From contig JBBDOX010000018.1 of the NCBI GenBank assembly GCA_040876835.1, positions 82,396 through 146,395 on the forward strand: a DNA stretch of 64,000 bases, in the 5' to 3' direction. Source of the DNA: Candidatus Anderseniibacteriota bacterium. GTDB lineage: Bacteria; Patescibacteriota; Andersenbacteria; UBA10190. How positions within the stretch are numbered: the first letter of the stretch is position 1; each line of letters opens with the position of its first letter. Made by a program: the position numbers and the translations under genes. The notes below the pieces were generated by a model. That model saw only the letters and a program-made list of their open reading frames with translations, did no database searches and was not told where the DNA came from. Below are positions 1 through 64,000 of the stretch, piece by piece.

Positions 1-504
1 AATCCACTGCGACAGTGTCAGCTGCGGTAGAAGGTGTTGACGCAAGGCTTCAAATAGTTGCTCTGCGGGAACGTCAATAAATTGCAGGATGCTTTGAACA
101 GGAGGGTATCGTAAGAGCTGGGCTACTACAGTCTCGAGTGGTAGATCTTTGTCCGTTCCGCCTCCTATAACCTCAATGGCGTCCCAGCTCAATACATCGC
201 CGATATTTACAATATTTGTATCGGGTTGAAGTATTTCAGATACCGTATGGGGCGGGTCCTCGTGCAAAAGTGATGTGTTGCCATAGACATACACCAGCCA
301 AACCCCTGATGCCAACCCCCACAGGATATATCCCACCCCAAGTAACGTGGGGGATGTTATCCCAAACATAAAAAACCCTAATCCTCCAAGTGTAAATAGT
401 ATTCCCAGAATCACCACCAATGGAGCCCGCAACGTAACGTTTAATACGTAAGAGCGATATCGGCTTCGAGTATCGACGTGTAAGGATGTACTATCCAGCT
501 TCAT
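1..504 (-). CDS. Hypothetical membrane-associated protein, partial. The gene continues beyond the window start.
   Basis: Open frame on the minus strand from the ATG at 504 to the window edge. Its start overlaps the upstream stop (ATGA). An N-terminal hydrophobic segment is present. It is absent from the ORF track because it is incomplete. Confidence 0.4.
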   Translation of the reverse strand, partial: MKLDSTSLHVDTRSRYRSYVLNVTLRAPLVVILGILFTLGGLGFFMFGITSPTLLGVGYILWGLASGVWLVYVYGNTSLLHEDPPHTVSEILQPDTNIVNIGDVLSWDAIEVIGGGTDKDLPLETVVAQLLRYPPVQSILQFIDVPAEQLFEALRQHLLPQLTLSQWI

Positions 505-878
505 ATTCCGCTCCCCATGACAATACCTCCAGCGATAATAAAGACGAGAGGAATAATCGGCCATAACAGAAAGAACACTATGGTCGCAAAGCTTGATAGA
601 AAGAGAAAAATAGTGGAAAACATCCAGGCAATTAACGCCGCTGTGCGTATAATCATGCCGATCGCCCGAGAAATCTGGTTAAGGGCAAAAGTAGTGAGAT
701 GTTGCGTCAGTGACCCGCCACTATAGGGTAATACGTCGCGATGCCAGTGAGAGAAGAAGGTCTTAAGCATGATTGTGACAGAAAATAGCCGGAAGTTTGC
801 TCGCTGCAGATTCCATGCAAATTCAAGCAACCATGTCGGACCATACCAAAATTGCCAGGCTACGTACCCTCCTTTCAT
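501..878 (-). CDS. Hypothetical polytopic membrane protein (125 aa).
   Basis: ORF-track protein with several hydrophobic helices. It lies immediately downstream of rplL and is translationally coupled (ATGA) to the next minus-strand ORF. Confidence 0.5.
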   Translation of the reverse strand: MKGGYVAWQFWYGPTWLLEFAWNLQRANFRLFSVTIMLKTFFSHWHRDVLPYSGGSLTQHLTTFALNQISRAIGMIIRTAALIAWMFSTIFLFLSSFATIVFFLLWPIIPLVFIIAGGIVMGSGI

Positions 879-957
879 GATTGTTAGTATAGCATGCTAA
901 AACAAAACTCGGCCCTTCTTAAACGGAGCCGAGTTTTGATACTTAACAAGTAGTGAA

Positions 958-1383
958 TTATTTGAGTTCCACTTTTCCGCCAGCTTCTTCAAGCTTTTTC
1001 TTAAGCTCTTCTGCTTCTTCTTTTGGTACATTCTCCTTAATTGTTGCTGGAGCTTTATCAACCACGGCTTTGGCGTCCTTTAAGCCTAACCCGGTTACCT
1101 CACGGACTGCCTTGATTACGGCAATCTTCTGCGGTCCGGCATCAGTGAGTTCAACTGTGAAGGAAGTCTTTTCTGCTGCCGCGCTTGCTTCACCGCCAGC
1201 AGGCGCTGCTGCGGCTACTGCTACTGGAGCAGCTGCGGATACGCCGAACTTGTCCTCCAGAACTTTGACGAGTTCTGATAGTTCAAGCACAGACATTTCT
1301 TCGATCTGTTTTACCAGATCCTGGAACTTTGCAGGCACTTCCACTTGTTTTTGTTCATCCTGCTTTGTTTCTTCTGCAACCAT
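958..1383 (-). CDS. rplL: 50S ribosomal protein L7/L12.
   Basis: Ala-rich hinge and a C-terminal domain ending ...[13 protein letters not shown]. The length and gene context (downstream of rplJ) fit. Confidence 0.95.
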
Positions 1384-1405
1384 AGATATGTAATTAATTT
1401 AATAC

Positions 1406-1933
1406 TTAAGCGTTTTGCTGCTTCTGGTCGGCAATTGCCTGCAGCACGTACACCGTTTGTCGCTGTACGCCAGAGAGCACTCGCGCGAAGCTGCTGATTG
1501 GCGCTGCTAATGTGCCTACCAGGTGACCAAGTAGCTCCTGACGGCCTGGTAGGGCTGCTAGAGCTGCTACCTGTTCCAAGGAGATAACGTTCCCCTCTAA
1601 GACACCGCCACGCATCTGGACAGTCTCGCGTCCCTTGGCAAAAGCGCTGAGCACTTTTGCAGGCGCCACAGGATCTGGACCCCAAATGATGGCCACCTGT
1701 CCTTCATAAACAGTTGGATCAAATTCGAGGCTAGCCTGCTGCATTACGATTCGCAGAAGGCGCTTGGGCACAACATGCATTGAGCAGCCTTCTTCAAACA
1801 GCTTGTCCCGCAAGTCATTCACGTCAGGCAGAGACAATCCGTTGTATGTCATAAACACAACGGCTGTCGCACCGGCGACGTGCTTTCCTACGAGCTCTAC
1901 TCTTTCCTCTTTTTGTTGTCGTGTAAGACTCAT
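1406..1933 (-). CDS. rplJ: 50S ribosomal protein L10.
   Basis: 175-aa protein with an L10-like N-terminus (MSLTRQQKEERVELV...). It lies directly upstream of rplL. Confidence 0.95.
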   Translation of the reverse strand: MSLTRQQKEERVELVGKHVAGATAVVFMTYNGLSLPDVNDLRDKLFEEGCSMHVVPKRLLRIVMQQASLEFDPTVYEGQVAIIWGPDPVAPAKVLSAFAKGRETVQMRGGVLEGNVISLEQVAALAALPGRQELLGHLVGTLAAPISSFARVLSGVQRQTVYVLQAIADQKQQNA

Positions 1934-1980
1934 GTGAAAGTCTGTAAGTTTAGTAATTCGTAATCATATTCCCCGTCTTT

Positions 1981-2013
1981 TTCGACCAAAAAACGGGCTT
2001 GCCACCCGTTTGA
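1981..2013 (-). terminator. Hairpin plus U-tract in the rplJ leader: a possible attenuator or upstream terminator.
   Basis: Read on the minus strand the sequence is AAACGGG-TGGCAAG-CCCGTTT followed by TTT, a 7-bp stem then a T-run, about 50 nt upstream of the rplJ start. Confidence 0.35.
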
Positions 2014-2191
2014 ACATAAAAACAGCATATTGCTGCCTTCCTGCCAGGGTCTTATGGAATGCCCTGGGTCTTGGGATGACTGAATGTATATATGACATAT
2101 AATAGCCGTAAGCGCAAACTTGACTGTCCGACGTCTATACTGCATTACAAAGAAGAGCTGCACCTTTCCCCTCCCGAGAAGGAGCAATGCC

Positions 2192-2506
2192 ATGTCGAAT
2201 CTGACTGCGGAGCAGTTGGTGGAGACGAACAGCTTCCTCGTCTATGCACCAGAGCGCTTGATTCTGTTTCGGTGCAGGCCACGCCCGGAAGAGGGTCTCT
2301 CCCCGAGGATCGACGCGTTTGAAGACTGTGACGAAGATAAGGTCTCCGCCCTCACGCTGGAGTTGCTCAACCCCGAAAAAGAGCAGATCGTTTACTGGCG
2401 TGAGCAGGAGACTGAAAACGGTCTGCGTCTTTACACGTACGACGAGTCGCACACCGTACTCGCGGAGAAGGCTTTGTCCAAGATTCGCGAATACCTGCAG
2501 AAGTAA
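2192..2506 (+). CDS. Hypothetical protein (105 aa) in a GC-richer segment.
   Basis: A GAAGGAG ribosome-binding site sits 7 nt before the ATG at 2192. Local GC is visibly higher than the flanks. No family recognised. Confidence 0.5.
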   Translation: MSNLTAEQLVETNSFLVYAPERLILFRCRPRPEEGLSPRIDAFEDCDEDKVSALTLELLNPEKEQIVYWREQETENGLRLYTYDESHTVLAEKALSKIREYLQK

Positions 2507-2525
2507 CGTACTTCTGTTTTTTATT
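2498..2525 (+). terminator. Rho-independent terminator.
   Basis: CAGAAGTA-ACG-TACTTCTG forms an 8-bp hairpin followed by TTTTTTATT. It overlaps the stop codon of the 2192-2506 ORF. Confidence 0.6.
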
Positions 2526-3549
2526 GCAGATGCTTGGCTTTATTCACATTATGCTCGTCGTTTGTTCTGGAAAAAATTGTCTCACCACTGGGGGCTGATA
2601 GATAGTAATAGTATTCAGACTCCTGCGGTTCTACGGCGGCCATTAAGGCTCGCAAGCCCGGATTGCCGATCGGCCCGGGCGGCAGTCCGCGGAACCTGCG
2701 CGTGTTGTACGGCGAATCAACGGCCAGATTCTGCACCGTAAGCGGTGAATCCCACTGATCGAGAATGTACCGAATGGTAGCGTCCGCCCCTAGCCCCATT
2801 TCCTCATCGTTGCGCTTCCACAGTACACCTGAGACTAAAGCCATGTCATCATCGGATATGACTTCTCGTTCGATGATACTGGCCATAATGATAATTTCAT
2901 CGAGCGTGCGGTCCGCTGCTCGAGCTTTATCCGGCAGCTCCGCCTGCCGGACTCTTTGATCAAATGTTGCCAGCATGCGCTTAATAACATCTTCTGGGGT
3001 GTCATCAGGAAACACTTTATAGGTGTCCGGGAAGAGGTAGCCTTCCAGGGTTCGATTTGGCGGCATGTTGCCCAGGAAAGGAAACTCCTCAGCATAGGCC
3101 GCGGGGTCGCTGGCGGCTGCAAGAAAAGCTTCTTCAGTGCTGATTCCACGAGATGCGGTGCGGGCAGCAATTTGTTTCAGAGTAAATCCTTCCGGATATG
3201 TAATTGTGAGCTCATCCGGCTGGGTGTCCCCGGTAATGAACCGCCCTACAACCTCAGTAATTGGTTCTCCCTCCTCAAGGTAATATGTTCCGGCCTTAAT
3301 CTTACTGGCGGCATCTTGTTTCCAGCCGGCGTACTTCAGGGGAAGCGTCTGATTCACAAACTCTTCCTCTTCCAGTTTCTCCCACACCCGCTGAGCCGTC
3401 GCACCTGATTCAATAGTAAAAGCTTCTGTCTTTTGGATAGTAGAGTTGCCCCAGATCAAGGTAGCAAGCCCCCACACTATCAACAGCAGAGCACCAATAA
3501 CAACGATGACTGTGCCTGCAAAGCGATACGGATTTGTAATACTAATCAT
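2521..3549 (-). CDS. mltG: Endolytic murein transglycosylase MltG (YceG-like).
   Basis: N-terminal transmembrane helix followed by a YceG-like domain, including ...GLPPGPIGNPG... near the C-terminus. Confidence 0.85.
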   Translation of the reverse strand: MISITNPYRFAGTVIVVIGALLLIVWGLATLIWGNSTIQKTEAFTIESGATAQRVWEKLEEEEFVNQTLPLKYAGWKQDAASKIKAGTYYLEEGEPITEVVGRFITGDTQPDELTITYPEGFTLKQIAARTASRGISTEEAFLAAASDPAAYAEEFPFLGNMPPNRTLEGYLFPDTYKVFPDDTPEDVIKRMLATFDQRVRQAELPDKARAADRTLDEIIIMASIIEREVISDDDMALVSGVLWKRNDEEMGLGADATIRYILDQWDSPLTVQNLAVDSPYNTRRFRGLPPGPIGNPGLRALMAAVEPQESEYYYYLSAPSGETIFSRTNDEHNVNKAKHLQ

Positions 3550-3555
3550 TAAATC

Positions 3556-4623
3556 CTAAAGGAATTCACTTCTCTTTTCCTGTTCTAGTCTTTGTACAAC
3601 GTCTTTCACCTTGTGTGAAGAATCTTTGTGAGTCACCAGGATGGCGTCATCGGTCACTACTACAATGCAGTCTTTAACTCCCACTAACGACACAACTCGC
3701 TTGGTCGCGTTATACACATAGTTATCATTCGCATCAACGTGAATGTGATGTCCGGCTGGCATATGGTCACCCTGCACACCGAAGACGTCTTTAACCGCGC
3801 CCCAGCTGCCCACATCGCTCCAGCCGTAGTCGCCGGTTACGGCAATAATGTTGGGGGTTTTTTCCAGTAACGCATAGTCGATCGAGATTTTCTCGCACTG
3901 ACCATAGGCCTTAGCAAAAGCTTTCGTATCATCCCCGGCCAAAGCTTCTCGACAGACTTCGATCTGCTTCATCAGGTCCGGATTGTATGCCCTAAGTTGC
4001 TCCAGTAAAAATGATGGTCGTACGCTGATGTATGCCATGTTCCAGAAATACTTGCCGGAGATGACGTATTCTTCAGCCGTCTTCTTATCCGGCTTTTCCT
4101 TAAACGCTGCCACCTTGTATACATCGCTGTGTCCTTCGATTTTTTCTCCAACCTCTAGATATCCCAATCCCGTTTCCGGAAATGTGGGGGTGTGTCCGAC
4201 AATTACTACCGCTTCCGGATTCGCTGCGAGGATATCAGGGATTTTTTGAAGATCAGCTAGCAGTTCTGTTTCGTTGGTAAACACATGGTCAGACCACATG
4301 AAGATAGTGGGTTCATCTCCTTTTCCACGCTCCTGTAGTGTTACGGCCGCGGCAGCAAAGGCGGGGCCTGTGTCCCGGCGCTCCGGTTCGAACATCATGT
4401 TGGCTGTTTTTGTTTCAGGCAGCAGCTGTTTAATTTGCTCCGCGTATTCCTGCGTAGTGGCCACAAAGATGTTTTCAATCTCTGCCAGCTGCTTTGCCCG
4501 CTCCCATGTCTCCTCGAGTAATGTCTTACCTGAACCCAAATCTAAAAACTGCTTGGGTTTGCTCTGGCGAGACAGCGGCCACAAGCGCGACCCACCCCCA
4601 CCTGCCATAATGACAACATTCAT
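3556..4623 (-). CDS. Mannose-1-phosphate guanylyltransferase / NDP-sugar pyrophosphorylase.
   Basis: N-terminal VIMAGGGGSRLWPLS nucleotidyltransferase motif. The probable start is the ATG at 4623, not the longer ORF-track start. Confidence 0.8.
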   Translation of the reverse strand: MNVVIMAGGGGSRLWPLSRQSKPKQFLDLGSGKTLLEETWERAKQLAEIENIFVATTQEYAEQIKQLLPETKTANMMFEPERRDTGPAFAAAAVTLQERGKGDEPTIFMWSDHVFTNETELLADLQKIPDILAANPEAVVIVGHTPTFPETGLGYLEVGEKIEGHSDVYKVAAFKEKPDKKTAEEYVISGKYFWNMAYISVRPSFLLEQLRAYNPDLMKQIEVCREALAGDDTKAFAKAYGQCEKISIDYALLEKTPNIIAVTGDYGWSDVGSWGAVKDVFGVQGDHMPAGHHIHVDANDNYVYNATKRVVSLVGVKDCIVVVTDDAILVTHKDSSHKVKDVVQRLEQEKRSEFL

Positions 4624-4959
4624 GTAATAGAGAATACGCAAGCTCTGCGGGAGAATCAAGGATGGACGGCTATTAGTTGTGTTAGTACAGTGCCGACGTG
4701 ATTGCCACCGTTATCTTCGACCTCGGCAATACACGACCCAGCTGAGTTAACAGCTTTTACTGCTGATGCTGTTCGCGTACCTGTTTCTCGATACTCTGAA
4801 GCCGTTGCTCCGTACTGGAACGACTTCCAGCGGGGGATGATCAAAGAGGTGGCCCTGTGGTAGCAAATAGCTAAGGAATTAGGAGTCTCTATCCTTCACC
4901 CCGAACAAGCAATTGCCGCTATCAAAACCCTGCTCAATTCCTGATATACTAACGGCATT

Positions 4960-6402
4960 ATGAGTATCGCCGCTCGCAGCCTTCATGGAGTGGGTGTTTG
5001 TCTTATCCCTCGGGAGGAAAACGCTTATAAGCCATTGGCTCTCCGTCATAAGCCGCTGGCCTTTGTGTCGGCATTGTTAATTTTAATGAAAGTTGCTGCC
5101 CTGGGAGTCATCGCTCTCACCCCTTCCCAGGCCGAGCTTTCCTCAATTACTACCGCCCGCGTTATCCAGTTCACTAATGCCGAACGCACTAAAGCAGGGC
5201 TTCCACCCCTCACGGCTAACGCCCAACTTTCAGCAGCGGCCAAGGAAAAAGGTGAGCACATGTTAGCTGAGGACTACTTCGCCCACATCTCCCCTTCCGG
5301 CGTCACTCCGTGGTATTGGATCCAGAAGCATGGCTATGTCTATCAGGTGGCCGGAGAGAACCTGGCAATTGATTTTACGGAAGCTGAAGATGTGGTGGCA
5401 GCCTGGATGGCTAGTCCGTCACACAAGGATAATATTCTGCATTCGGCATACACCGAAACGGGGGTAGCTGTTGTGAGTGGCGAATTTCAGGGTGGCACCT
5501 CTATTATCGTGGTTCATATGTTCGGCAAACCTTCTGGCGGACAAGTGGCGGCCCAGCTTTCTTCTCCTACTCCAACCCCTACTCCTGTACCGGCAGCCGC
5601 CCCTGTCAACAGTCCTACAGTAGCTCCTACCCCCACGCCCTCGCCTACTCCGCTACCTACGCCAGTCCCGGACACCAACCCCCCACGGGTGCCCCGCATT
5701 GCCTACAATGGTCAAAACACCACCGTGGGTAATCAGGCTACTTTCCTTCTGGAAGGAGAGCCTAATTCGACTGTTCATGTGCTTATTAACAGTCAACTAC
5801 GTGATAGCGTAACGGTTTCAGCGGAAGGTACTGTGACCAGAGAGCTTAATCTATCCAACCTGCCTGACGGAACCGTTGTGCTGCGGGTATACAGCAGCGA
5901 CAGCGCTGGTAATAAAAGCAGTTTGTCAGACCCCTTCACTGTCACTAAGGATACTTCAGGCCCTGAAGTATCAGCTGACCAGGTGCGGCTGGTTATCGCC
6001 CCCCAGTTCGATACTGTCTCAGCCACGCTGCTGCCGTTCCAGGAATCCTTCACTGCCGCTCGTCTAGCGCACGGGAGTACGGAAGTATCGCTTGCTTCGT
6101 CTCCGACGCTCCTGTCGATACACGATCCGGCCATCGTCCACGTGTCTGACGAGAGCGGCAACGAGACTACACTGGAGCTGCCGCTGCTCATCCCGCAGTT
6201 TGAATTTGATTTTAAAGATAGTGAGCTTAAAGCTCCAGCGCGGTTTAGTCGCCTCACTCGAAATATGACTGCCGCCATATTTATCACCACCTTCATTCTC
6301 TTAATTGTCGCTGTTCTGATCCGAGTTCGGATCCAACATCCCGCTTTAATTACTCATGCCTCTTTTGTAGTACTCCTTGCAGCAGCACTCTTTCTGGTGT
6401 AG
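4960..6402 (+). CDS. Surface protein with an N-terminal CAP/SCP (YkwD-like) domain, a Pro/Thr-rich linker, an Ig-like domain and a C-terminal transmembrane anchor.
   Basis: CAP-like segment ...FTNAERTKAGLPPL...HKDNILHSAYTETGVAV. This is followed by a PTPTPTPVP linker and a hydrophobic C-terminus. Confidence 0.6.
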   Translation: MSIAARSLHGVGVCLIPREENAYKPLALRHKPLAFVSALLILMKVAALGVIALTPSQAELSSITTARVIQFTNAERTKAGLPPLTANAQLSAAAKEKGEHMLAEDYFAHISPSGVTPWYWIQKHGYVYQVAGENLAIDFTEAEDVVAAWMASPSHKDNILHSAYTETGVAVVSGEFQGGTSIIVVHMFGKPSGGQVAAQLSSPTPTPTPVPAAAPVNSPTVAPTPTPSPTPLPTPVPDTNPPRVPRIAYNGQNTTVGNQATFLLEGEPNSTVHVLINSQLRDSVTVSAEGTVTRELNLSNLPDGTVVLRVYSSDSAGNKSSLSDPFTVTKDTSGPEVSADQVRLVIAPQFDTVSATLLPFQESFTAARLAHGSTEVSLASSPTLLSIHDPAIVHVSDESGNETTLELPLLIPQFEFDFKDSELKAPARFSRLTRNMTAAIFITTFILLIVAVLIRVRIQHPALITHASFVVLLAAALFLV

Positions 6403-6420
6403 GCAGTGGAAAAGTAAAAA

Positions 6421-6450
6421 TTGAGTATTTTGGGCCTATAATGGTAGAAT
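6421..6450 (+). promoter_or_regulatory. Candidate sigma70-type promoter for the histone-like gene.
   Basis: TTGAGT, an 18-nt spacer, then TAGAAT. A TATAAT also overlaps the spacer. A strong ribosome-binding site TAAGGAGGTG follows at 6490-6499. Confidence 0.3.
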
Positions 6451-6506
6451 TGCCCCGATGTGGAAACATCCTTTAAATTTCACTAAATGGTAAGGAGGTG
6501 TTATCT

Positions 6507-6683
6507 ATGAGCGACATGGTTGTTGTAGCAAGTAAGGTTCGCGCTCATCTAAAAGAAAAGGGCGTGAAAATGTCCGGAGAACTTCCAGACGCGTTAAACA
6601 AGAAAGTAATGCAGATGCTAGATGCAGCTGCTGAACGTGCACGAGCGAACAAGCGATCTACCGTAAAGCCACAAGACGCGTAA
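6507..6683 (+). CDS. Bacterial histone-fold protein, Bd0055-like singlet histone.
   Basis: 58-aa MSDMVVVASKVRAHLKEKG...ERARANKRSTVKPQDA. The VVV-SKV-LKEKG start and A-R-x-x-x-R-x-T-V-x-x-x-D end match the HMfB/Bd0055 histone fold (alpha1 through alpha3). The ribosome-binding site is strong. Confidence 0.7.
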   Translation: MSDMVVVASKVRAHLKEKGVKMSGELPDALNKKVMQMLDAAAERARANKRSTVKPQDA

Positions 6684-6706
6684 CGTTTTACTTGTCTTTT
6701 GATTCA

Positions 6707-6744
6707 AATAACCGCTACCTTACACAGGAGCGGTTATTTGTATG
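6707..6744 (+). terminator. Rho-independent terminator after the histone-like gene.
   Basis: Perfect 10-bp hairpin AATAACCGCT (12-nt loop) AGCGGTTATT followed by TGTATG. Confidence 0.55.
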
Positions 6745-6998
6745 TACAGGGCTCTATGTGGCCGTATATGTTATCGTTCGAAAGGGGTGACTTCGATAAA
6801 ATAGGAGGAGGGAGATGGTGTTTGTAAGGAGGAAGAAGAGAAAAAACCGCTGGCCAGGAATAGGCCCCAGAATACTACGCCCAAGGCTATCAGACCGGCT
6901 AAAAACCACCACGGCGTCATGTTTGGTCCTTTCTCCATATCTAGTTGACAAAAGCTATAGCTGGTGCTATTATATCATGTTTTAGTAATGAGGTCAAT

Positions 6999-7835
6999 AT
7001 GCGTGAAAAGATTGAATCAATAGAATACGTCTCGGAAAACAGTGCGGCCTATCTCCCGACGGCTGCAGTTGTGCCTGCTCCGGTTCCGGACGCTATCCCA
7101 GTTGTCCCCACCCCCACACCGGCGGGAACCCCCTCTTCTCGTCCATCCGCTACGGTGTTTATCGGTACATTTGTGTCAGCCTTTATGCTGGCCTTCGGTA
7201 TTATTATAGGCGGACTGACTGTCGCTCCGGTTGTCGCCCATCTATTTGTCTATGCTGATCAGGACTATGCTCCTCAGCTACCGCTGAGTGAAGAGCGCGA
7301 TGAGAGCGTGTTTGATATTACAAAAAATCCGGGTAAGAGACTGTATCCGTCTCTTGGTGTCGTAGAGAATATTGAAAGCGGCAACTGGATCCGTATTCCA
7401 TCTCTTGATGTAAACGTACCGCTGGTGTTAAGTCCGACTCTGGAAGATGTTGATGTGCTTAAAACCCTCGACCACGGTGCAGCTCTGTACCCCAACGGTG
7501 TATTACCGGGGCGTCTAGGTAATACCTTCATTGCCGCTCACAGCACCGGGGAGCCTTGGAAGGGCCTGTATCGCTTCGCCTTCCTGCGCATTAATGAACT
7601 CGAACCAGGTAATGTTATTCACCTGGATTATGATGGTGCCCGCTACACGTATGCGGTGCAGGAAAAAGAAATTGTGATTCCTACCCCCGATTTTCTGGTT
7701 ATCTCTGACCGCCCCGTTCCTACTATGAGTTTGATGGCCTGCTGGCCTCTATGGTCAACCCAAAAGCGCATGCTGATCCATGCTGAGCTGCAAAACGTTA
7801 CTCAACTGACAAGTCCTCCGGCTAGTGTAAGCTAA
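6999..7835 (+). CDS. Sortase family transpeptidase.
   Basis: His motif NTFIAAHSTG, Cys motif MSLMACWP (TLxTC-like) and a conserved Arg (KRMLIHAEL), with an N-terminal membrane anchor. The internal start at 6999 is preferred over the ORF-track start. Confidence 0.8.
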   Translation: MREKIESIEYVSENSAAYLPTAAVVPAPVPDAIPVVPTPTPAGTPSSRPSATVFIGTFVSAFMLAFGIIIGGLTVAPVVAHLFVYADQDYAPQLPLSEERDESVFDITKNPGKRLYPSLGVVENIESGNWIRIPSLDVNVPLVLSPTLEDVDVLKTLDHGAALYPNGVLPGRLGNTFIAAHSTGEPWKGLYRFAFLRINELEPGNVIHLDYDGARYTYAVQEKEIVIPTPDFLVISDRPVPTMSLMACWPLWSTQKRMLIHAELQNVTQLTSPPASVS

Positions 7836-7840
7836 TTGCG

Positions 7841-8866: not shown

Positions 8867-8922
8867 ACTGTATAGCCTATATATCCTCTAACTAATTGTC
8901 TATCGCATGATACAGTGAAAAT

Positions 8923-10710: not shown

Positions 10711-10850
10711 AGTTAAAAGCAAGCGCTATAATCGTGAAAAAATATCCTGGATATCGACTCCTTAATTTTAGTGAAATCAATAACTTCCTCCTACCGGCCT
10801 TCCTTCTCAGGCGAAGTAGCTTTTTTAGGATATTCACCCACACCCCGATC

Positions 10851-11411: not shown

Positions 11412-11413
11412 GT

Positions 11414-15337: not shown

Positions 15338-15342
15338 AATTA

Positions 15343-19851: not shown

Positions 19852-20142
19852 TTAGTTCAGCTTTCGATCGGCTCTATGTTTTTCGTAAGTGAAGTATTGG
19901 ACCAGGGTTATCCCCCACATAATGATCCCGACTGAGAATGAGGCTAATGGTAACCAGGCGCGAGTTAGAATAAAGAAACCAATTGAAGAAGCGTAAAAAC
20001 CAAGTGCTATGAGTATAGTGGTGAGCGGTTGTCCGGACCGCTTTTCCTGATAATTTTTCTTAATCTGGGCCGGGATACCAATAAGCACTAAGGCGAGCGA
20101 AAACAAACTTACGAGAATACTGAGAGTGAATTGAATATCCAT
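19852..20142 (-). CDS. PQ-loop / SemiSWEET-like small membrane protein (3 transmembrane helices).
   Basis: 96 aa. A ...GIPAQIKKNYQEKRSG segment after the first helix resembles the PQ-loop motif. Three hydrophobic helices. Confidence 0.4.
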   Translation of the reverse strand: MDIQFTLSILVSLFSLALVLIGIPAQIKKNYQEKRSGQPLTTILIALGFYASSIGFFILTRAWLPLASFSVGIIMWGITLVQYFTYEKHRADRKLN

Positions 20143-22893: not shown

Positions 22894-22894
22894 A

Positions 22895-56559: not shown

Positions 56560-56565
56560 GACGTA

Positions 56566-58047
56566 CTACCCTAAAATCTTTTTCCGGAGCAAGGCAATTA
56601 CCTGAGTAGGATTTGCTTTCCCCTGAGATCTAGCCATAACCTGGCCCATAAGAAATTGAATAGCCCCTTCTTTACCACTGGCGATTTTCTCTACAACCTC
56701 GGGATTTTCAGCAATGACCTGTTCAACAAATTTCTCTAGTTCCCCTGTCTCGCTTACCTGCTCTAATCCTAATTTCAGAATGATAGGATCAGGATCTCCA
56801 GCAGTTTTTTGCATCTCATCTAATACTTTACGCACTGCAATTCGATTAATTTTCCCTTGTAACACATACACTACAAGCTCAGCGAAGTTAGCGGTTGTAA
56901 TCTTCAAATCACTATATCGGAGGCCTTCGTCCGTCATTATATCCCGTACTTCCCGCAGAATGATTTTAATGGCGATAGAGACCAGCTCTGGCACTTGAGC
57001 AGGAGAAATATCAACTTGCTCCTTATCGAGCTGTCTCAACTCACTTACTGCATCCTCAAACATGTATGCCAACTCTTTGTTAGCTATAAGCAGATCAGCT
57101 TGCTGTGACGACAAGCCATATTCATCCATAAATCGATTGCGCTTGGCACTAGGCAGCTCAATAAGCTGTTTACGAATAGTGTTCATGTATTTGGTATCGA
57201 AGATAAATGGCGGAATATCTGGCTCAGGGAAATACCGATAATCGGCGGCTTCTTCTTTGGTGCGCTGTTCCACTGTTACTCCTTCCTCACTATCGTAGCC
57301 ACGCGTAGCGTGAGAAGGGATTTCTCCTTCCTCCCACATCTTTGATTGTCTGGTTATTTCATAATCAAGCGCCCGTTCTACAAATCGAAACGAATTTACA
57401 TTCTTGATTTCAGTTTTTGGATTTAAAGTAGTACTACCCTTTTCGCGAAGAGAGATATTAGCATCACAGCGCATCTGCCCTTTTTCCATATCAGCATCCG
57501 AAACCCCTAGCGCCCTTACAATACGCTGTAACTCCTGAAGAAATATTTTAGCCTCACGGGGACTGCGAATATCTGGTTCAGTTACGATTTCAATAAGTGG
57601 GGTGCCGGCTCGGTTGTAATCTACTAATGTATAGTCTGCTCCTCGCGGATGAGTATTTTTTGCAGCATCTTCCTCTAGGTGAATCCGGGTGATACCAATA
57701 GTTCGCTCTTCTCCGTCGACAACAATTGTGAGCTCCCCTTTCCCACAAAATGGTTTATCGTACTGACTAATTTGATACCCCTTGGGCAGGTCGGGATAAA
57801 AGTAACTTTTACGGTCAAATTTACTTTCTAAGGCAAGCTCACAGTTTAGAGCTAAGCCTGTAAGTTGTGTCCATTCAATAGCTTTTTTGTTAGGCACTGG
57901 CAACGTTCCGGGATGCCCCATGCATATCGGGCAGATGGCTGTATTGGGCTCTACTTCGCCAAATATATTTGCACACGCACAGAACATTTTACTCTCCGTT
58001 TTCAGCTGAACGTGGATTTCAAGACCAATAACAGGTTCACTCTTCAT
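56566..58047 (-). CDS. gatB: Asp/Glu-tRNA amidotransferase subunit B.
   Basis: N-terminus ...GLEIHVQLKTESKMFCACANIFG... The start at 58047 is preferred. Confidence 0.9.
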   Translation of the reverse strand: MKSEPVIGLEIHVQLKTESKMFCACANIFGEVEPNTAICPICMGHPGTLPVPNKKAIEWTQLTGLALNCELALESKFDRKSYFYPDLPKGYQISQYDKPFCGKGELTIVVDGEERTIGITRIHLEEDAAKNTHPRGADYTLVDYNRAGTPLIEIVTEPDIRSPREAKIFLQELQRIVRALGVSDADMEKGQMRCDANISLREKGSTTLNPKTEIKNVNSFRFVERALDYEITRQSKMWEEGEIPSHATRGYDSEEGVTVEQRTKEEAADYRYFPEPDIPPFIFDTKYMNTIRKQLIELPSAKRNRFMDEYGLSSQQADLLIANKELAYMFEDAVSELRQLDKEQVDISPAQVPELVSIAIKIILREVRDIMTDEGLRYSDLKITTANFAELVVYVLQGKINRIAVRKVLDEMQKTAGDPDPIILKLGLEQVSETGELEKFVEQVIAENPEVVEKIASGKEGAIQFLMGQVMARSQGKANPTQVIALLRKKILG

Positions 58048-58188
58048 ACGGAGCAAGAGTAGCGCAATTATTCCCGGCCGGCAATTGGCTTATCGTGGAA
58101 ATATCGGCTTGTAGGCACTCCCCTGCTCACGTAGCATATACAGATGCCTACTGTGCATTTTCTTATTTCTTTACTCTATTAAGAGGCT

Positions 58189-58761
58189 ATGATTTTATCC
58201 GATCGGGACATAAAGCAAGCTATAAAGGAAAAACGTATTATCGTAAAACCAAAGCCGGATTATGAATCCCAGCTCGGCAGCTCAAGCCTGGATTTGCGAC
58301 TGGGTTACTATTTCCGTATCTTTAAACACCGCCGCACGCCTTTTGTTGATCCCTTTGACGCCAAAACAACTGAAGGGATGACTGAGGAAATTAAAATTAC
58401 CCAGAAGGAGCCCTACGTAATCCAGCCGGGGGAGTTTGTCTTGGCCTCTATACTAGAATGGGTAGAGCTAGCTGATGACCTTTCGGCTCGAATTGATGGT
58501 CGCAGTAGCCTGGGTCGCCTAGGCCTAGTCATCCACTCCACGGCAGGACATATTGATGCAGGCTTTAAAGGCTCTATCACTATGGAGCTATCGAATATCG
58601 GCATGATGCCAATTGTGCTGTATCCAAAAATGCGTATCTGCCAACTAGTCTTTGAACCGCTTTCTTCGCCCGCCGAGCGCCCATATACCCTGAAACCTGG
58701 TGCTAAGTACCACAACAAAACAACCCCCGCCGAGACAGCAATTGGACAAGAGAAACTGTAA
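58189..58761 (+). CDS. dcd: dCTP deaminase.
   Basis: MILSDRDIKQAI... N-terminus and the dUTPase-like fold, with ...GRSSLGRLG... 190 aa. Confidence 0.85.
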   Translation: MILSDRDIKQAIKEKRIIVKPKPDYESQLGSSSLDLRLGYYFRIFKHRRTPFVDPFDAKTTEGMTEEIKITQKEPYVIQPGEFVLASILEWVELADDLSARIDGRSSLGRLGLVIHSTAGHIDAGFKGSITMELSNIGMMPIVLYPKMRICQLVFEPLSSPAERPYTLKPGAKYHNKTTPAETAIGQEKL

Positions 58762-58770
58762 ACTTCATAT

Positions 58771-59193
58771 ATGATTTCCTTTGAAGTAAAGCGCCTAAGC
58801 GATAACGCCACTCTGCCCCAGAAGAATAACCCTTTGGACGCTGGTATCGATATCTTTACAAATGAGTCATATACTCTCTCCCCTGGCGAAACTCACATGT
58901 TCTCAACCGGCATTTCTGCAGCCTTACCGGACGGTTATGTGGCCTTGATCTGGGACCGATCGGGCCTCGGCAGCAAAGGTATCCACCGTTTAGCTGGAGT
59001 GATTGATTCTATTTACCGCGGCGAATGGAAAATTATTCTTACCAACCTAACTGCCGACCCTTACGAAATACAGGCTGGAGACAAGATTGCTCAATGTATA
59101 GTACAAAAGTTTGAACCGGTCACAATTACTGAAGTGGAAGAACTCTCCAATACTGATCGTGGCAGTCAAGGTTTCGGCAGTTCAGGACGTTAG
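58771..59193 (+). CDS. dut: dUTP diphosphatase.
   Basis: Motifs ...AGIDIF..., ...RSGLGSKG..., ...IDSIYRGEW..., ...DRGSQGFGSSG. 140 aa. Confidence 0.85.
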   Translation: MISFEVKRLSDNATLPQKNNPLDAGIDIFTNESYTLSPGETHMFSTGISAALPDGYVALIWDRSGLGSKGIHRLAGVIDSIYRGEWKIILTNLTADPYEIQAGDKIAQCIVQKFEPVTITEVEELSNTDRGSQGFGSSGR

Positions 59194-59196
59194 CCT

Positions 59197-60762
59197 CTAC
59201 TCAACAATTTCTTCTTTTCGCTCTCGAATAAACACAAACCACTCTTCGGCTACATCGATCAGGAGCTTAAAAGGAGCTTCGATAATAAGGTCCATTACGA
59301 ATACGACAATATTAAGCTGAGTTATACCAGTTGCCAGCCAACGTCCAAATTCCAGCATCGGAAGGGTTAGAAAGCTGAATATAGCGCTAAAAGCGCCTTC
59401 TTTCTTACGCACCAACTGGACTTCCCTAATTGATCGGCGAATTCTGAAGGCTAAAAAGCTTGTTAGGCCTAAAAATACTACAAAGAAAAACGTCGCTACC
59501 ACAGAGAATTCTAACCGATGAAGTACGAAGAAAAGTACGTAGAAAAATCCAATTAATAGACTAGCGTAAATAGTAGCAAAGACCCAACGGGTAATGAGCC
59601 CATACCCCCGCGGAGGACTGATAATGATATTGGGCAACACTCCCTGCCCAGTAACGATTGTTCGTACCTGCTCGACAATACGAACGGTATTTTCATTTCC
59701 AGGCAGACGTACTGTCACGCTTAATAGGAACAGAAGAAACGGATGAAAGAGAACGTTAATCAGTAGAGCCAGCAAGTGAATGGTGCGAGCCGTAATAAGC
59801 TCAAATAACAGTTCAAATGGCAAAGTTAGCGCCGTTTTGGTAATAAGCAGAAACACCACACTGTGATAGGCACGCTGTTGAATTTTTTGCTGGATGTATT
59901 GCGTGCGAGCGGTTATTGCTTGCTTAGTACCCTCTTCAAGAGACTCCCGAGAATCCCATGTACCAGGCGAAAAACGTAGCAGATGCCAGATCATACGGTA
60001 TGGGACGCTGACTGGCATAAGAAGCCGCTGTAAGCGTGGCTGAATGGGGTGAGATATAATCCGATCCATTTCTGCCCGAAAAGCAGGAAACTGCTGAGCG
60101 AGCTCCTGGGTATGCTCGACGGTAAACTCTGACCGCTGCCAAAAAGGAAAACGGCGAACGAAGTAGTGATACAACACTAGCGACTCACTGGAGGCAAACA
60201 GTGCCTTATGACATGCAAAATATAGCTGAACTGGCTGTTGAGCAGGGGTAACCAACTCATCAGCCCAGATCACTCGGTGATAGGTGTCCTGATACATGAC
60301 ATGTACCAATGAGTCTTCAAGCTGCTCTGGAAAAAACAGTCGATCAATAGTTATTGCCACGAATTTTAAAAAGTACGCCTTATCGGCTTCGGATAATCCG
60401 TCAATAACCGACCGAGCCTTATCAATAACAGAAGCCACCGCTGGAATAATTGCTTTAGATACAGGACGTATATAATGAGCGCGAATCAGCTCTTGCAACA
60501 CCAAGTTTGCCAATAGTTCGTTAGAGCGATCTTCTGCGATGCGACGCTCAACTATACGAGCTATAGCGTTCTGACGAAGAATATGTTCTTCATCAGGCTC
60601 AAGAGTATTACGCAGTCGCTCATACGCGAATGCGATTCTACGCGTAGCAGAAGAGACTGGAATTACTTCATCTTCCGTCAATATTCTTTCTTCGGCAGGA
60701 TCACGTACCAGTGACCGTAACGCCACAATCTGTTCTCGTAAAAGCACTTCCATAAGTAACAC
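59197..60762 (-). CDS. Hypothetical protein with an N-terminal soluble domain and a C-terminal multi-pass membrane domain.
   Basis: 521 aa with hydrophobic helices in the last roughly 200 aa. No family recognised. Confidence 0.45.
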   Translation of the reverse strand: MLLMEVLLREQIVALRSLVRDPAEERILTEDEVIPVSSATRRIAFAYERLRNTLEPDEEHILRQNAIARIVERRIAEDRSNELLANLVLQELIRAHYIRPVSKAIIPAVASVIDKARSVIDGLSEADKAYFLKFVAITIDRLFFPEQLEDSLVHVMYQDTYHRVIWADELVTPAQQPVQLYFACHKALFASSESLVLYHYFVRRFPFWQRSEFTVEHTQELAQQFPAFRAEMDRIISHPIQPRLQRLLMPVSVPYRMIWHLLRFSPGTWDSRESLEEGTKQAITARTQYIQQKIQQRAYHSVVFLLITKTALTLPFELLFELITARTIHLLALLINVLFHPFLLFLLSVTVRLPGNENTVRIVEQVRTIVTGQGVLPNIIISPPRGYGLITRWVFATIYASLLIGFFYVLFFVLHRLEFSVVATFFFVVFLGLTSFLAFRIRRSIREVQLVRKKEGAFSAIFSFLTLPMLEFGRWLATGITQLNIVVFVMDLIIEAPFKLLIDVAEEWFVFIRERKEEIVE

Positions 60763-60840
60763 CCTATACTACTCTGCTTGGCAATCTAAACACAAGTATG
60801 TCAGTAATTGCATACCGTGATAAAAAGCCTCTGTTTAGCT

Positions 60841-61218
60841 TCAGGCAAGATCTTGCAGATTGCTGATAATGTCGTCTTCAGAGACGTAAATAATGATCTG
60901 GGAGGTCACGAACTTTAAGGCTGGAGATGGTTCTGAGCCGCCATGATGGAATGCGATGATTTCTTTCTTAGCTGCATTAGCCCAACCGAGCTCAATACCG
61001 CTTCCAGTCGAAGGAATAGATACTTCCACTAACACTAAATCCGCTTTCGCAATTTCGTCTTTGGTAAGCTGCACTTCATCCTCCTCTTTATGCGGAAGCA
61101 CTACCTTAATATCAGGGTGTTCCTCCGCAAAGCGGTTAATGGCATTAAAGAATGTAGGAGTATGTTGCGGACTGCCAGAAGGGTGAGAAACAAACCACAG
61201 CTGTTTTCTGCTTAACAT
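60841..61218 (-). CDS. NDT/DNPH1-like (nucleoside 2-deoxyribosyltransferase family) protein.
   Basis: ...VEVSIPSTGSGIELGWANAAKKEIIAF matches the NDT catalytic-Glu motif. The start at 61218 avoids overlap with the upstream gene. Confidence 0.55.
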   Translation of the reverse strand: MLSRKQLWFVSHPSGSPQHTPTFFNAINRFAEEHPDIKVVLPHKEEDEVQLTKDEIAKADLVLVEVSIPSTGSGIELGWANAAKKEIIAFHHGGSEPSPALKFVTSQIIIYVSEDDIISNLQDLA

Positions 61219-61235
61219 AGAAAAGGTATTTACAA

Positions 61236-61901
61236 CTAAACCCGACTCGATATGTGCCCCCACACTTCCTCATGAATATCCTGCCGCGTGCGTTCCCGCC
61301 CTTGTTGATCGACATTATTTACAATAAGCCAGTTCTCCTCCCGTGCAAACTTGGCATAACTGCGTCTCGTCATGGTCAGCTTATCGCGCTGTTCAAATAT
61401 ATCCTTTTTTCTACCCGCTTTCTCGAGACGGTGCATAGCCAAATCCACAGGAATATCAAGTAAGATCACGGCCGTAGGTACTAGAAGACTGGGGTGCCCC
61501 TCCCAACATAACCACTTGATCCATTTCAGCATTTCTTCCCGCTGCTTTCCATTCAACCCGATAGTCTGATATGCCATAGTACTCGTACAGTACCGATCAG
61601 AAATGATAACGTCGCGCTTTTTTCCTTTTTCTACAATAGCGCTCATCTCCTCCAGGCGAGAGTAAAAATCTTGAATGTATAGGAGGGCCTGCTCTCGTCG
61701 ACTTAACGGGTGTCGGTGTTTATCGTGTAAATACTTTTCATAAATGAGCTGGCCTGTTGGAGAGTCTTCCTGCGGGAAATGATACTCATGAGGGTTGTAA
61801 TGAGTCTTTTTAAGACGCTGGACGAGCAAATCTAGCTGGGTAGACCCTCCCCCAGCGTCAAGAGATTCTATAACAAAAAATGGACGGGATGAGGAAGCCA
61901 T
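61236..61901 (-). CDS. Thymidylate kinase-like paralog with a degenerate P-loop.
   Basis: DRY motif (IISDRY) and lid region present, but the P-loop reads FFVIESLDAGGGST. The Walker lysine is missing. Confidence 0.55.
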   Translation of the reverse strand: MASSSRPFFVIESLDAGGGSTQLDLLVQRLKKTHYNPHEYHFPQEDSPTGQLIYEKYLHDKHRHPLSRREQALLYIQDFYSRLEEMSAIVEKGKKRDVIISDRYCTSTMAYQTIGLNGKQREEMLKWIKWLCWEGHPSLLVPTAVILLDIPVDLAMHRLEKAGRKKDIFEQRDKLTMTRRSYAKFAREENWLIVNNVDQQGRERTRQDIHEEVWGHISSRV

Positions 61902-61934
61902 CTCGCTAGTGTAACGCGCCTGCCGCTTGAATGT

Positions 61935-62639
61935 CTACGCAAAGATACGAGGTAAGGTCTGCGTAATCCTCCCCCATATGAGTTGATGTATTTCTTCGAT
62001 TGGTAGAAGATTTTCTCCCTGCGTACAAGGGATACTGACATATTGCGGATTACTTTGAGCCAAATATTGATATTCTGCATATAATCGTTCCTGTACGTGA
62101 ATATGGTCGGTATATTCATCGTCATCCCGAAGCTTCTCTTTTCGTTTTTCAAGAAGTGCTGTTGTAATTGATGGAGGAACGTCAAGAAATATCGATATAT
62201 CCTCTCTTGGCATACCGTTTTTCTCGTACTCGACATTTCGTACCGCCTGGTGAACTTCCTCTCGTGATACCGAGCTGGCATCATGCATAGCCTCTACCGC
62301 GATAAAAGCCAGGCTGCTAGGAACATAACGGTCATACACAACAACCTCTCCTCGCTTCAACGCTTCAATCACTTCCTGACGATGTTCCGCCCTATTGCGA
62401 GCAAAGTACATTAACTTTTCCTCCCAAGAAGTTTCTTCCCAGTTGCCAAGCCTGCCTTGAAGACGCAACTTAAGCTCTTTTCCTGATTCTGTTTCATAAT
62501 CAGGAGTCTGAAACTGACGGACTGTTTTTCCTGCGCGTTCAAGCCGTTCTATGAAAAGACGAGCTTGCGTTTCCTTACCAGAAGAGTCGAGGCCATCAAA
62601 AGAAATAAGGAACCCCTTGCCTGCTTCTGTCTCCATCAT
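61935..62639 (-). CDS. tmk: Thymidylate kinase.
   Basis: P-loop FLISFDGLDSSGKET and DRY motif (VVYDRY). Confidence 0.75.
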   Translation of the reverse strand: MMETEAGKGFLISFDGLDSSGKETQARLFIERLERAGKTVRQFQTPDYETESGKELKLRLQGRLGNWEETSWEEKLMYFARNRAEHRQEVIEALKRGEVVVYDRYVPSSLAFIAVEAMHDASSVSREEVHQAVRNVEYEKNGMPREDISIFLDVPPSITTALLEKRKEKLRDDDEYTDHIHVQERLYAEYQYLAQSNPQYVSIPCTQGENLLPIEEIHQLIWGRITQTLPRIFA

Positions 62640-62644
62640 ATTTT

Positions 62645-63325
62645 CTATAACGAAAGCCGCACGGCCGGACCCATAGTGGTCGCAAGCACAGCGTGCGATA
62701 AGAACTCCCCTTTTTGACTGGCCGGACGAGCTGCACGAATAGCATCAACGAGAGCCTCAAGGTTTTCCTGGATTTTTTCTGCTTCCCAACTGAGTTTGGC
62801 CACACTTTCATGAATGTTTCCAAGTTGATCCATTTTGAAGGCAAGCTTACCTGCAACTAGTTCCTTAACAGCTTCCTCCACGTTAGGAGTAACCGTACCG
62901 GTTTTAGGATTTGGCATTAGGCCTTTAGGACCAAGAATTTTCGCAATCTTGGCAACTTTCGGCATCATATCAGGCGATGCAATGGTTACGTCAGCATCCA
63001 AACCACCTTCTGAAGCAATCTGATCAATTAGAGCTTGTCCCCCCACCTGGGCGGCACCAGCAGCCTCAGCTGCTTTCTGTTTGGCTGAATCTTCGGTAAA
63101 GACAACAATGGTTTTCTGTTTAGGCGTACCATGTGGCAAAACAACACTTCCACGCACCGCTTGGTCCGACTTACTAGGATCTACTCCCAAGCGAATATGA
63201 AGCTCTACAGTTTCATCAAATTTTGCGCGCGGATTTCCTTTAATAAAAGAGATTGCTTCCGATGCTGAAACTACACTGGTCGGAGCTTTTTCCTTAACTG
63301 TTTTGTATCCCTTACTTCGTGCCAT
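62645..63325 (-). CDS. rplA: 50S ribosomal protein L1.
   Basis: 226 aa, ...KFDETVELHIRLGVDP..., directly downstream of rplK. Confidence 0.95.
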   Translation of the reverse strand: MARSKGYKTVKEKAPTSVVSASEAISFIKGNPRAKFDETVELHIRLGVDPSKSDQAVRGSVVLPHGTPKQKTIVVFTEDSAKQKAAEAAGAAQVGGQALIDQIASEGGLDADVTIASPDMMPKVAKIAKILGPKGLMPNPKTGTVTPNVEEAVKELVAGKLAFKMDQLGNIHESVAKLSWEAEKIQENLEALVDAIRAARPASQKGEFLSHAVLATTMGPAVRLSL

Positions 63326-63330
63326 AGAAA

Positions 63331-63750
63331 TTATTCAACTGTTATACCCATTGATCGAGCAGTGCCTTCAACAATCTTTATTGCTGCTTCAACGTCGCGG
63401 GCTGATAAATCTTCAAGCTTACGTTCAGCAATTTCCCGTACCTGTTGTTTGGTTACCTTGCCGACTTTGGCAGTGTTGGGAGTAGGAGATCCTCCTTTTA
63501 CCCCAGCCGCCTTCTTAAGTAACTCAGCAGCTGGCGGAGTTTTGAGCTTAAGTTCCATTGTGCGGTCAGCATAAATGGTTACTTCGACAGGAATAATGTC
63601 GCCGCGCATTTCTTTCGTCATGTCGTTAAATCGAGTGACAAAATCACTGATGTTTACGCCATGTTGACCCAAAGCTGGACCAATAGGTGGAGCCGGGGTT
63701 GCTTGTCCACCCGGGGCCTGGATCTTTACTACTGTAAGTACTTCTGCCAT
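63331..63750 (-). CDS. rplK: 50S ribosomal protein L11.
   Basis: ...[16 protein letters not shown]... L11 signature. 139 aa. Confidence 0.95.
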
Positions 63751-63791
63751 ATAACTAGCGTATAGTGAGTTATTCTAAGGAGAGAGTCAAG

Positions 63792-64000
63792 TTAGCTGTC
63801 TTTTTTGACCTGCAAGAAGTCGAGTTCAACTGGTGTTTCTCGGCCAAAGACGTTGACCAGCACCTTTACCGTACCCTTGGCTTCACTGACCTCAGAAATC
63901 TTTCCTTCAAAGTCTTTAAATGGTCCATCCATAATTTTAACTGAGTCGCCTTCTTCCACGTCCATTTTGTATTTAGGCTCATCTTCGCCCATACGAGATA
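63792..64000 (-). CDS. nusG: Transcription termination/antitermination factor NusG, C-terminal KOW part. The gene continues beyond the window end.
   Basis: KOW motif ...GDSVKIMDGPFKDFEGKISEV. Confidence 0.85.
   Translation of the reverse strand, partial: SRMGEDEPKYKMDVEEGDSVKIMDGPFKDFEGKISEVSEAKGTVKVLVNVFGRETPVELDFLQVKKDS

Follow-up and report, generated by a model that had tools for sequence, protein, structure and literature searches.

Organization of the locus

A stretch of 64,000 nt (hereafter the window) from a metagenome-assembled genome (MAG) of Candidatus Andersenbacteria (lineage Patescibacteria group, Parcubacteria group, Ca. Anderseniibacteriota) was analysed with regard to the genes of the secE-nusG-rplKAJL-rpoBC cluster and the neighbouring rpmG and tRNA-Trp genes. 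A preliminary description, based on the sequence, had placed these genes in three separate pieces, all on the minus strand: nusG, rplK and rplA at 62.6-64 kb, rpmG and tRNA-Trp at 31.3-31.6 kb, and rplJ and rplL at 1.0-1.9 kb. Family scans confirmed these identities and coordinates (Table 1), and the scores of rplL, rplJ, rplA and rplK were all well over the NCBIfam equivalog cutoffs. The dnaE, thrS, gatB, prfA, rpsB and tsf genes named for the intervening blocks were also recovered by the scans, alongside prmC (with prfA), tyrS, rodA, miaA and the gene for L25. Indeed, the block of ~31 kb between rplA and rpmG consists of core housekeeping genes. The window has a GC content of 46.8%; its genes are short and tightly packed, and 56 of the 72 main open reading frames (ORFs; 78%) lie on the minus strand.

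Across the window end the gene order is pheS-pheT-gyrB-secE-nusG-rplK-rplA. The complete nusG gene was read on contig L002 of an independent assembly (Logan contigs, run SRR27977662), where it matched Pfam NusG and KOW and TIGR00922 (212.7 bits). The secE gene, whose location had been left to be checked, matches TIGR00964 and is present directly 5' of nusG just beyond the window end, so it is not missing. The gaps within secE-nusG-rplK-rplA are 5-41 nt on L002, with secE-nusG standing directly 5' of rplK-rplA. It is gyrB, not rpmG/tRNA-Trp, that precedes secE; the rpmG-tRNA-Trp pair, in which the tRNA gene is found 59 nt 3' of rpmG, lies 31 kb downstream of rplA. Likewise, rplJ is not adjacent to rplA. 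A tmk gene begins there instead, 5 nt past rplA, a second tmk gene follows after 33 nt, and the distance between rplKA and rplJL amounts to 60.7 kb. The rplJ gene comes after mltG across a 587-nt spacer, and manC-mltG occupies the position of rplKA.

According to the preliminary description, rplL is followed by two small membrane-protein genes, not by rpoB. The second part of this statement was borne out, as no RpoB/RpoC similarity was found there by tblastn, and the E. coli RpoB and RpoC queries gave no match in the window nor in ~10 kb past either end (83-kb span). As to the first part, one of the genes does encode a small protein of 89 aa (p89), but the other is the N-terminus of a membrane-anchored, Clp-like ATPase of 822 aa whose gene extends past the window start. 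The full ATPase gene (L001:11164-13898) has NCBIfam ClpB/ClpA matches, every one under the equivalog cutoff. It is followed by genes for a 742-aa protein (p742), a 215-aa protein (p215) and a DUF2238 protein and by the mraZ-rsmH-PBP division cluster.

Conservation of the junctions in relatives

The arrangement was compared with that of relatives at both ends. For L10, a pattern search over one genome per GTDB species yielded 80 loci, which were mapped by tblastn with the window proteins. The pattern was built from a 12-sequence alignment; a single L10 query found no relative, and a 46-sequence alignment was too divergent. Of the 80 loci, 18 belong to the Andersenbacteria clade, with L10 identities of 48-77%. 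The other 62 come from further Patescibacteria, whose titles name Magasanik-, Moran-, Uhr- or Paceibacteria or the Parcubacteria group. Upstream sequence covered at least 3 kb in 58 loci and at least 9.5 kb in 47, downstream sequence at least 5 kb in 56 and at least 9.5 kb in 48. For L1, seven relatives with 54-74% L1 identity were obtained from NCBI, ENA, JGI and Logan.

All 18 Andersenbacteria L10 loci, as far as each reaches, show the order sortase(-)-CAP(-)-manC-mltG-rplJ-rplL-(p89-clp)-p742(-)-p215-DUF2238-mraZ-rsmH. The segment manC-mltG-rplJ-rplL was found in each of the 15 clade loci with sufficient upstream sequence, and mltG-rplJL was also present in the Paceibacterota genome L071. 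Neither L1 and L11 nor NusG, SecE, GyrB and Tmk had a tblastn match within 10 kb in any of the 80 L10 loci, and for RpoB and RpoC all of the 88 loci examined were negative. In a positive control these queries did recover the E. coli orthologues (E <= 1e-9); sensitivity is therefore not the cause of the missing matches.

At the other end, the order pheST-gyrB-(secE)-nusG-rplK-rplA-tmk-(tmk)-dcd-dcd was found in all seven L1 relatives, with gatB next in six of them. A secE gene was called 5' of nusG in five; in the remaining two (L090 and L091) no secE was called and an uncalled gap of 0.4-0.5 kb precedes nusG. The order rplA-tmk-tmk holds in six of the seven, the second tmk gene of L090 lying on the opposite strand. 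The gap between rplA and tmk is 3-5 nt in L084-L087, compared to 5 nt in the window. The rplA-rpmG block is collinear with relatives as far as it can be read (to thrS in L084 and L085, to miaA in L087), and syntenic homologues of rpmG with 67-78% identity were found in six relatives.

Two relatives have the pieces on a single contig. On CAYUBL010000002.1, the plus strand carries rplA (~43.2 kb) and rplJ (~90.8 kb); on JGI Ga0613207_062990, it carries rplA (91.2 kb), rpmG (~129.5 kb) and rplJ (137.2 kb). The separation of rplA and rplJ is thus about 45-47 kb, and order and co-orientation are as in the window. Taken together, the breakpoints gyrB|secE, rplA|tmk and mltG|rplJ...rplL|non-rpoB were shared by all Andersenbacteria relatives studied, even those with protein identities as low as 48-58%. 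The synteny comparison proposed in the preliminary description hence gave the same split throughout, and the split is no peculiarity of this genome but ancestral and common in the lineage, the outcome that the preliminary description had named as speaking against novelty. Since all relatives share the same breakpoints, the split is old and lineage-typical. We consider it very probable that it represents the normal, ancestral gene order of Andersenbacteria, correctly assembled, and that the super-cluster was dismantled long ago into independent units.

Two further observations were made on the conserved neighbourhoods. The two tmk genes and two tandem paralogues of the dCTP-deaminase/dUTPase fold form a deoxynucleotide module (window 58189-62639), which is joined to secE-nusG-rplKA in all seven relatives, among them L084, L085, L087 and L090-L092. 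On the rplL side, p89 and the ATPase were found as a full-length pair in seven Andersenbacteria-clade loci, including the end-cut L017, where only p89 is visible. In other loci the pair was absent or gave weak partial matches.

Assembly support

The junctions might also stem from an assembly or binning artefact, the contig being a chimera of three unrelated pieces and the split not biological. The source is indeed a short-read MAG, and the Logan assembly of the same locus is not continuous. It breaks at ~24251/24709, inside a HAD hydrolase gene, at 34575, beside the tRNA-Thr/Tyr pair, and at ~54.0-54.1 kb (thrS), so that the long-range joins rest on the original assembler. These break points may reflect strain heterogeneity or repeats.

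However, the Logan contigs match the window at positions 1-11933, 24709-34575 and 54120-64000 with 99.99-100% identity (99.99% for L002, which covers the last of these). The first contig, which extends to ~24.25 kb, carries mltG-rplJ-rplL-p89-clp, the second p515-rpmG-tRNATrp-p575 and the third gyrB-secE-nusG-rplKA-tmk. All disputed operon junctions are thereby internal to Logan contigs and none lies at a contig end. Since every junction is reproduced in an independent assembly at this identity, the chimerism that the preliminary description had asked to exclude is very unlikely, as far as the tools used allow. Further support is provided by the relatives: identical junctions occur in MAGs of unrelated samples and projects, and the long-range order of the pieces is corroborated by the two relatives in which a single contig carries them, arranged and oriented as here. 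An artefact is thus effectively refuted, and we regard it as the least credible of the explanations weighed here.

A variable interval beside tRNA-Trp

One interval of the window does differ from the relatives. Between the sortase gene and tRNA-Trp (or rpmG) lies a slot of 23.5 kb here, which in six relatives measures 62 nt-3.6 kb. Correspondingly, rpmG and rplJ are 29.5 kb apart in the window and 4.5-7.9 kb in the six relatives, an excess of ~22 kb. By Pfam, the slot contains genes for small enzymes of house-cleaning and nucleotide metabolism (Maf, MazG-like, HIT, HAD, His-phosphatase), for MurJ, for two C39-like peptidases and for an ECF-type sigma factor. Two pairs of an NDT-like (nucleoside 2-deoxyribosyltransferase-like) and a NUDIX hydrolase gene, a kinase, acetyl- and methyltransferases and proteins without assigned function were also found. 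The GC content is 41-43% at 22-30 kb, compared to 46-52% in the flanks.

The slot genes have almost no counterparts at the loci of the relatives. Two exceptions were found in L010 and L018: the genes at 19852-20142 and 25092-25658 are 80-81% identical to neighbours of tRNA-Trp in these loci. This identity, reached although L10 is only 55-57% identical, suggests lateral exchange at the slot. Among the Pfam hits of the ORFs covered at 12-31 kb, no integrase, recombinase, transposase or phage genes were seen, and none of the repeats found in 7-32 kb duplicates the 3' end of the tRNA. These results led us to reject the idea that the 12-31 kb block is a prophage or an element integrated at tRNA-Trp, integrase, phage genes and att-like repeats all being absent. 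The slot resembles tRNA-adjacent genomic islands in its variable content beside a tRNA gene, its lower GC content and its cargo of unexpected similarity to distant relatives; it differs from them in that no integrase, tRNA 3'-end repeat or mobility genes were found. It is best described as a variable accessory region, probably supplied through lateral exchange; a classical integrative element is not indicated.

Further features of the slot were noted. The NDT-like/NUDIX pair is duplicated (14961-15638 and 22517-23196, ~74% nucleotide identity, 7.56 kb apart), and another NDT-like gene, the third in the window, lies at 60841-61263, past the two tmk genes 3' of rplA. A direct repeat of 68 nt with 82% identity (27340-27407 and 28759-28826, 1.4 kb apart) is located in the low-GC region, its copies lying within or beside genes without assigned function. 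The tRNA-Trp gene is co-oriented with rpmG in the window, L008 and L071. It is inverted with respect to rpmG, and co-oriented with the sortase gene, in L010 (5494-5567), L014 (5488-5559), L015 (5465-5538) and L018 (2088-2160); the inversion was confirmed by blastn in L010, L014 and L015 and rests on ARAGORN alone in L018. This pattern suggests repeated small inversions at the tRNA-Trp spot and fits a local rearrangement hot spot.

The preliminary description had read the split as the result of large rearrangements or insertions, which would mean that an intact cluster was broken up recently and in this genome, e.g. by mobile elements. The surplus of ~22 kb of accessory genes in the slot, the drop in GC content and the two cargo genes with their suggested lateral exchange would all be in line with such events. 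Yet the three breakpoints are common to all relatives and must predate this genome by far. The ~31 kb from rplA to rpmG consist of core housekeeping genes, collinear with relatives as far as these can be read, and the slot itself lacks integrase, transposase and phage genes (Pfam) as well as a tRNA-derived direct repeat. A recent, genome-specific split is therefore improbable. What stands of the earlier reading is that the cluster is broken; the breaks are lineage-wide, and an insertion may account for one interval only. The ~22 kb of accessory genes are the one element specific to this genome.

A conserved leader upstream of rplJ

The 220 nt 5' of rplJ were aligned from 19 genomes. Promoter-like boxes (TTGCAT-N17-(TG)nTATACA-like) are conserved at ~2088-2118. 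After the boxes, the sequence AGUCAUCC-NNAGAC-(6-bp stem)-GC...UAAGA-(stem)-NA-GGA is conserved. The core motif of ~48 nt (2035-2082) consists of a P1 helix (UCC/GGA), a loop NNN-GA // NA resembling a kink-turn (K-turn), a 6-bp P2 hairpin and an unpaired UAAG. A small hairpin with a U-run is found at ~2018-2036, and a terminator-like hairpin (AAACGGG-N7-CCCGUUU) with a U-run lies 3' of the core at 1988-2011. GC hairpins with U-runs of a similar kind are present in most relatives.

The P2 stem was recovered by RNAalifold. For the structure specified by hand, 98.7% of the alignment cells pair, compensatory changes occur at four of the six P2 pairs, and none of 500 shuffles reached the score. Register-shifted controls collapsed in this covariation test. 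When outgroup sequences were added, 97% of cells were paired and five of the six P2 pairs were compensatory; again, 0 of 500 shuffles reached the score. The minimum free energy of the leader had a z-score of -2.4.

Besides the window, 18 loci of the Andersenbacteria clade have the motif 5' of rplJ, namely 17 of the 18 GTDB loci (L016 has no upstream sequence) and L089. A covariance model (R1) recovered 17 clade loci and missed L021, where the motif was seen by alignment and pattern match. It also recovered nine outgroup loci (L022, L033, L040-L042, L044, L046, L060 and L072), seven of which are titled Moran(i)ibacteria. Except for two weak matches (E 0.019 and 0.37), R1 matched only 5' of rplJ, at 60-260 nt. 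The UAAG is present in 24 of 27 aligned sequences; L017 has UCAG, L042 has CAAG, and the loop of L020 is interrupted by an insertion. Judged by sequence, UCC-NNN-GA...NA-GGA is compatible with a K-turn, in which the G.A at 1b.1n is invariant and position 2n varies. No Rfam 15 family, L10_leader included, matched the leader, the searches returning only tRNAs and noise.

According to Yakhnin et al. (2015; PMC4538822, citing Iben & Draper), L10(L12)4 recognizes both its leader and 23S rRNA through two features, a kink-turn and an unpaired UAA. In B. subtilis, binding of L10(L12)4 promotes termination at the leader terminator (PMC4538822). The leader described here shares with the known L10 leaders (B. 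subtilis attenuator, E. coli translational operator, RF00557) the location in the rplJ 5' untranslated region, a loop compatible with a K-turn, the unpaired UAA and the terminator-like hairpin. It differs from them in having no significant match to RF00557 or another Rfam family, in its much shorter core and in a 2n position that is not a conserved G, and no anti-terminator was identified in it. By analogy to these systems, rplJL is probably a self-contained operon, which is most likely autoregulated by attenuation or translational repression upon putative binding of L10(L12)4. The leader and its terminator-like hairpin may further constitute an undescribed Patescibacteria class of L10(L12)4 autoregulatory leader, absent from Rfam 15, which would let rplJL stand free of rplKA and rpoBC across the Andersenbacteria and Moranbacteria-type genomes sampled. 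The chances of this proposal are about even. Literature searches returned no description of an L10 leader in candidate phyla radiation (CPR) bacteria/Patescibacteria.

The leader also bears on the question whether the split is adaptive, i.e. whether uncoupling from rpoBC and fusion to mltG and tmk provides a co-regulation that suits the slow-growing, reduced lifestyle of the CPR. The adjacencies mltG-rplJL and rplA-tmk-tmk have long been conserved, and the gaps on the rplA side are very short. However, adjacency can be kept neutrally in small, gene-dense genomes, and the own leader of rplJ together with the spacer after mltG, 150-950 nt among relatives, argues against co-regulation with mltG. 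We regard an adaptive origin as unlikely, though less so than a recent split.

Additional features

The coordinates of the features are listed in Table 1. In the proteins encoded further along the window, the best model for TyrRS (33560-34684) was PRK08560, which we take to be the archaeal-type TyrRS model. EF-Ts (41417-41998) is very short (193 aa), and S2 (42024-42953) has an N-terminal extension of ~60 aa ahead of the conserved domain. The TyrRS type, the short EF-Ts and the extended S2 look typical of CPR genomes. Past the window start, p742 on the minus and p215 on the plus strand (L001:13901-16909) have no Pfam or NCBIfam match. They are found 3' of rplL in Andersenbacteria and in 40 of the 62 outgroup loci, including most loci of Magasanikbacteria type, where the identity is 22-36%. 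They form a conserved neighbourhood of proteins without assigned function.

Table 1. Features of the split cluster and its surroundings (positions in the window)
Feature	Position	Strand	Evidence or remark
nusG, C-terminal KOW part	63792-64000	-	translation; gene runs off window end
rplK (L11)	63331-63750	-	TIGR01632, 182.4 bits
rplA (L1)	62645-63325	-	TIGR01169, 264.1 bits
tmk, first dTMP-kinase paralogue	61935-62639	-	TIGR00041/NF005923
tmk, second dTMP-kinase paralogue	61236-61901	-	TIGR00041/NF005923
rpmG (L33)	31450-31614	-	TIGR01023, 60.2 bits vs cutoff 24
tRNA-Trp (CCA)	31317-31390	-	ARAGORN; Rfam RF00005, 63.7 bits
variable accessory interval, tRNA-Trp to sortase gene	7841-31278	.	23.5 kb
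manC-like	3556-4659	-	family scan
mltG	2521-3549	-	family scan
rplJ 5' leader	1934-2125	-	alignment and RNA structure analysis
rplJ (L10)	1406-1933	-	NF000955, 141.8 bits
rplL (L7/L12)	958-1383	-	TIGR00855, 150.8 bits
p89, 89-aa protein with two transmembrane segments	501-770	-	gene call, hydropathy
N-terminus (two transmembrane segments) of 822-aa Clp/Hsp100-like AAA+ ATPase	1-504	-	Pfam AAA_2/ClpB_D2-small on L001

Discussion

The genes considered here had been described as contiguous in most bacteria. This applies to secE-nusG-rplKAJL-rpoBC, as in E. coli, but not to rpmG and tRNA-Trp, which lie outside the cluster in E. coli. A position of rpmG and/or tRNA-Trp directly 5' of secE is the arrangement of Firmicutes, Actinobacteria and Thermotoga type. 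Compared to the (tufB)-secE-nusG-rplKAJL-rpoBC cluster of E. coli K-12, the window retains the sub-units secE-nusG-rplK-rplA and rplJ-rplL with a leader, and tRNA-Thr/Tyr genes are near. It differs in that rplKA and rplJL are tens of kilobases apart with rpmG-tRNA-Trp between them, that tmk follows rplA, that a membrane protein and a Clp-like ATPase follow rplL, and that rpoBC is missing from the 83-kb span. Further splits are known from Mycoplasma and from cyanobacteria, in which rpoBC1C2 lies apart. The rplKAJL-rpoBC order is widely conserved, and genes part rplKA from rplJL in Bradyrhizobium diazoefficiens and Actinomyces israelii (bioRxiv 10.1101/2025.04.14.645983). As in those splits, the breaks described here fall on the seams rplA|rplJ and rplL|rpoB, where known units of transcription and regulation meet; unlike them, they extend over tens of kilobases, yield three pieces and are found in all 80 sampled loci. 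Literature searches returned no paper describing this gene order for CPR/Patescibacteria.

In the ancestral order that we propose, secE-nusG-rplK-rplA would have been re-housed 3' of pheST-gyrB and joined downstream to the two tmk genes and the NDT-like gene. The short spacing and the conservation in seven relatives suggest that the rplKA unit is probably one transcript running on into the nucleotide-metabolism genes. The rpmG-tRNA-Trp pair would have been kept beside tyrS and the tRNA-Thr/Tyr genes, and rplJ-rplL would have been placed between manC-mltG and the membrane and cell-division genes, with rpoBC elsewhere. Each unit could then work alone. With its own promoter-like boxes and structured leader, rplJL would not depend on linkage to rplKA or rpoBC, and a self-contained, autoregulated rplJL would explain why this linkage became dispensable. 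That the three pieces are co-oriented is probably due to the placement of highly expressed genes on the leading strand, which is suggested by the GC skew, negative over nearly the whole window, and by the excess of genes on the minus strand.

A trace of the original order may be preserved in the distant Paceibacterota genome L071, which has tRNA-Tyr, tRNA-Thr, rpmG and tRNA-Trp, then 2.6 kb, then mltG-rplJ-rplL. In Andersenbacteria as well as in L071, rpmG-tRNA-Trp stands a few kilobases 5' of mltG-rplJL and is co-oriented with it. This is the remnant that would be expected if an early Patescibacterium had lost secE-nusG-rplKA from its place between tRNA-Trp and rplJ to another site, if rpoBC had become detached, and if a few genes had been inserted afterwards. 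We infer this direction and order of events as a possible history, which present sampling does not allow to be proven.

Several points weigh against the interpretation of an old split into self-sufficient units. The 80 loci were picked by their likeness to this L10 and cover part of the Patescibacteria, and all comparison loci are MAGs that share assembly technology. The rpoB and rpoC genes were not located with the E. coli queries in any of the DNA examined (window, flanks and 88 loci). As to the leader, L10_leader gave no match in the window at the Rfam gathering threshold, nor when the limit was relaxed to E<=1 over 1.8 kb and to E<=10 over 211 nt; the 2n position of the K-turn is C, U, G or A and not a conserved G; and a generic sigma-70/terminator scan around rplJL stayed at chance level and missed the conserved boxes. 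Finally, GC skew is indirect evidence on the direction of replication.

The split is lineage-typical, and there is no ground to flag a rearrangement, insertion or misassembly in this genome on its account. In all 80 sampled Patescibacteria loci rplJL is uncoupled from rplKA and rpoBC, which makes them a counter-example to the near-universal rplKAJL-rpoBC order, and the breaks coincide exactly with the seams of known regulatory units. To our knowledge, almost no cis-regulatory RNAs have been annotated in CPR bacteria. The putative rplJ leader provides a testable candidate for ribosomal-protein autoregulation in this group.

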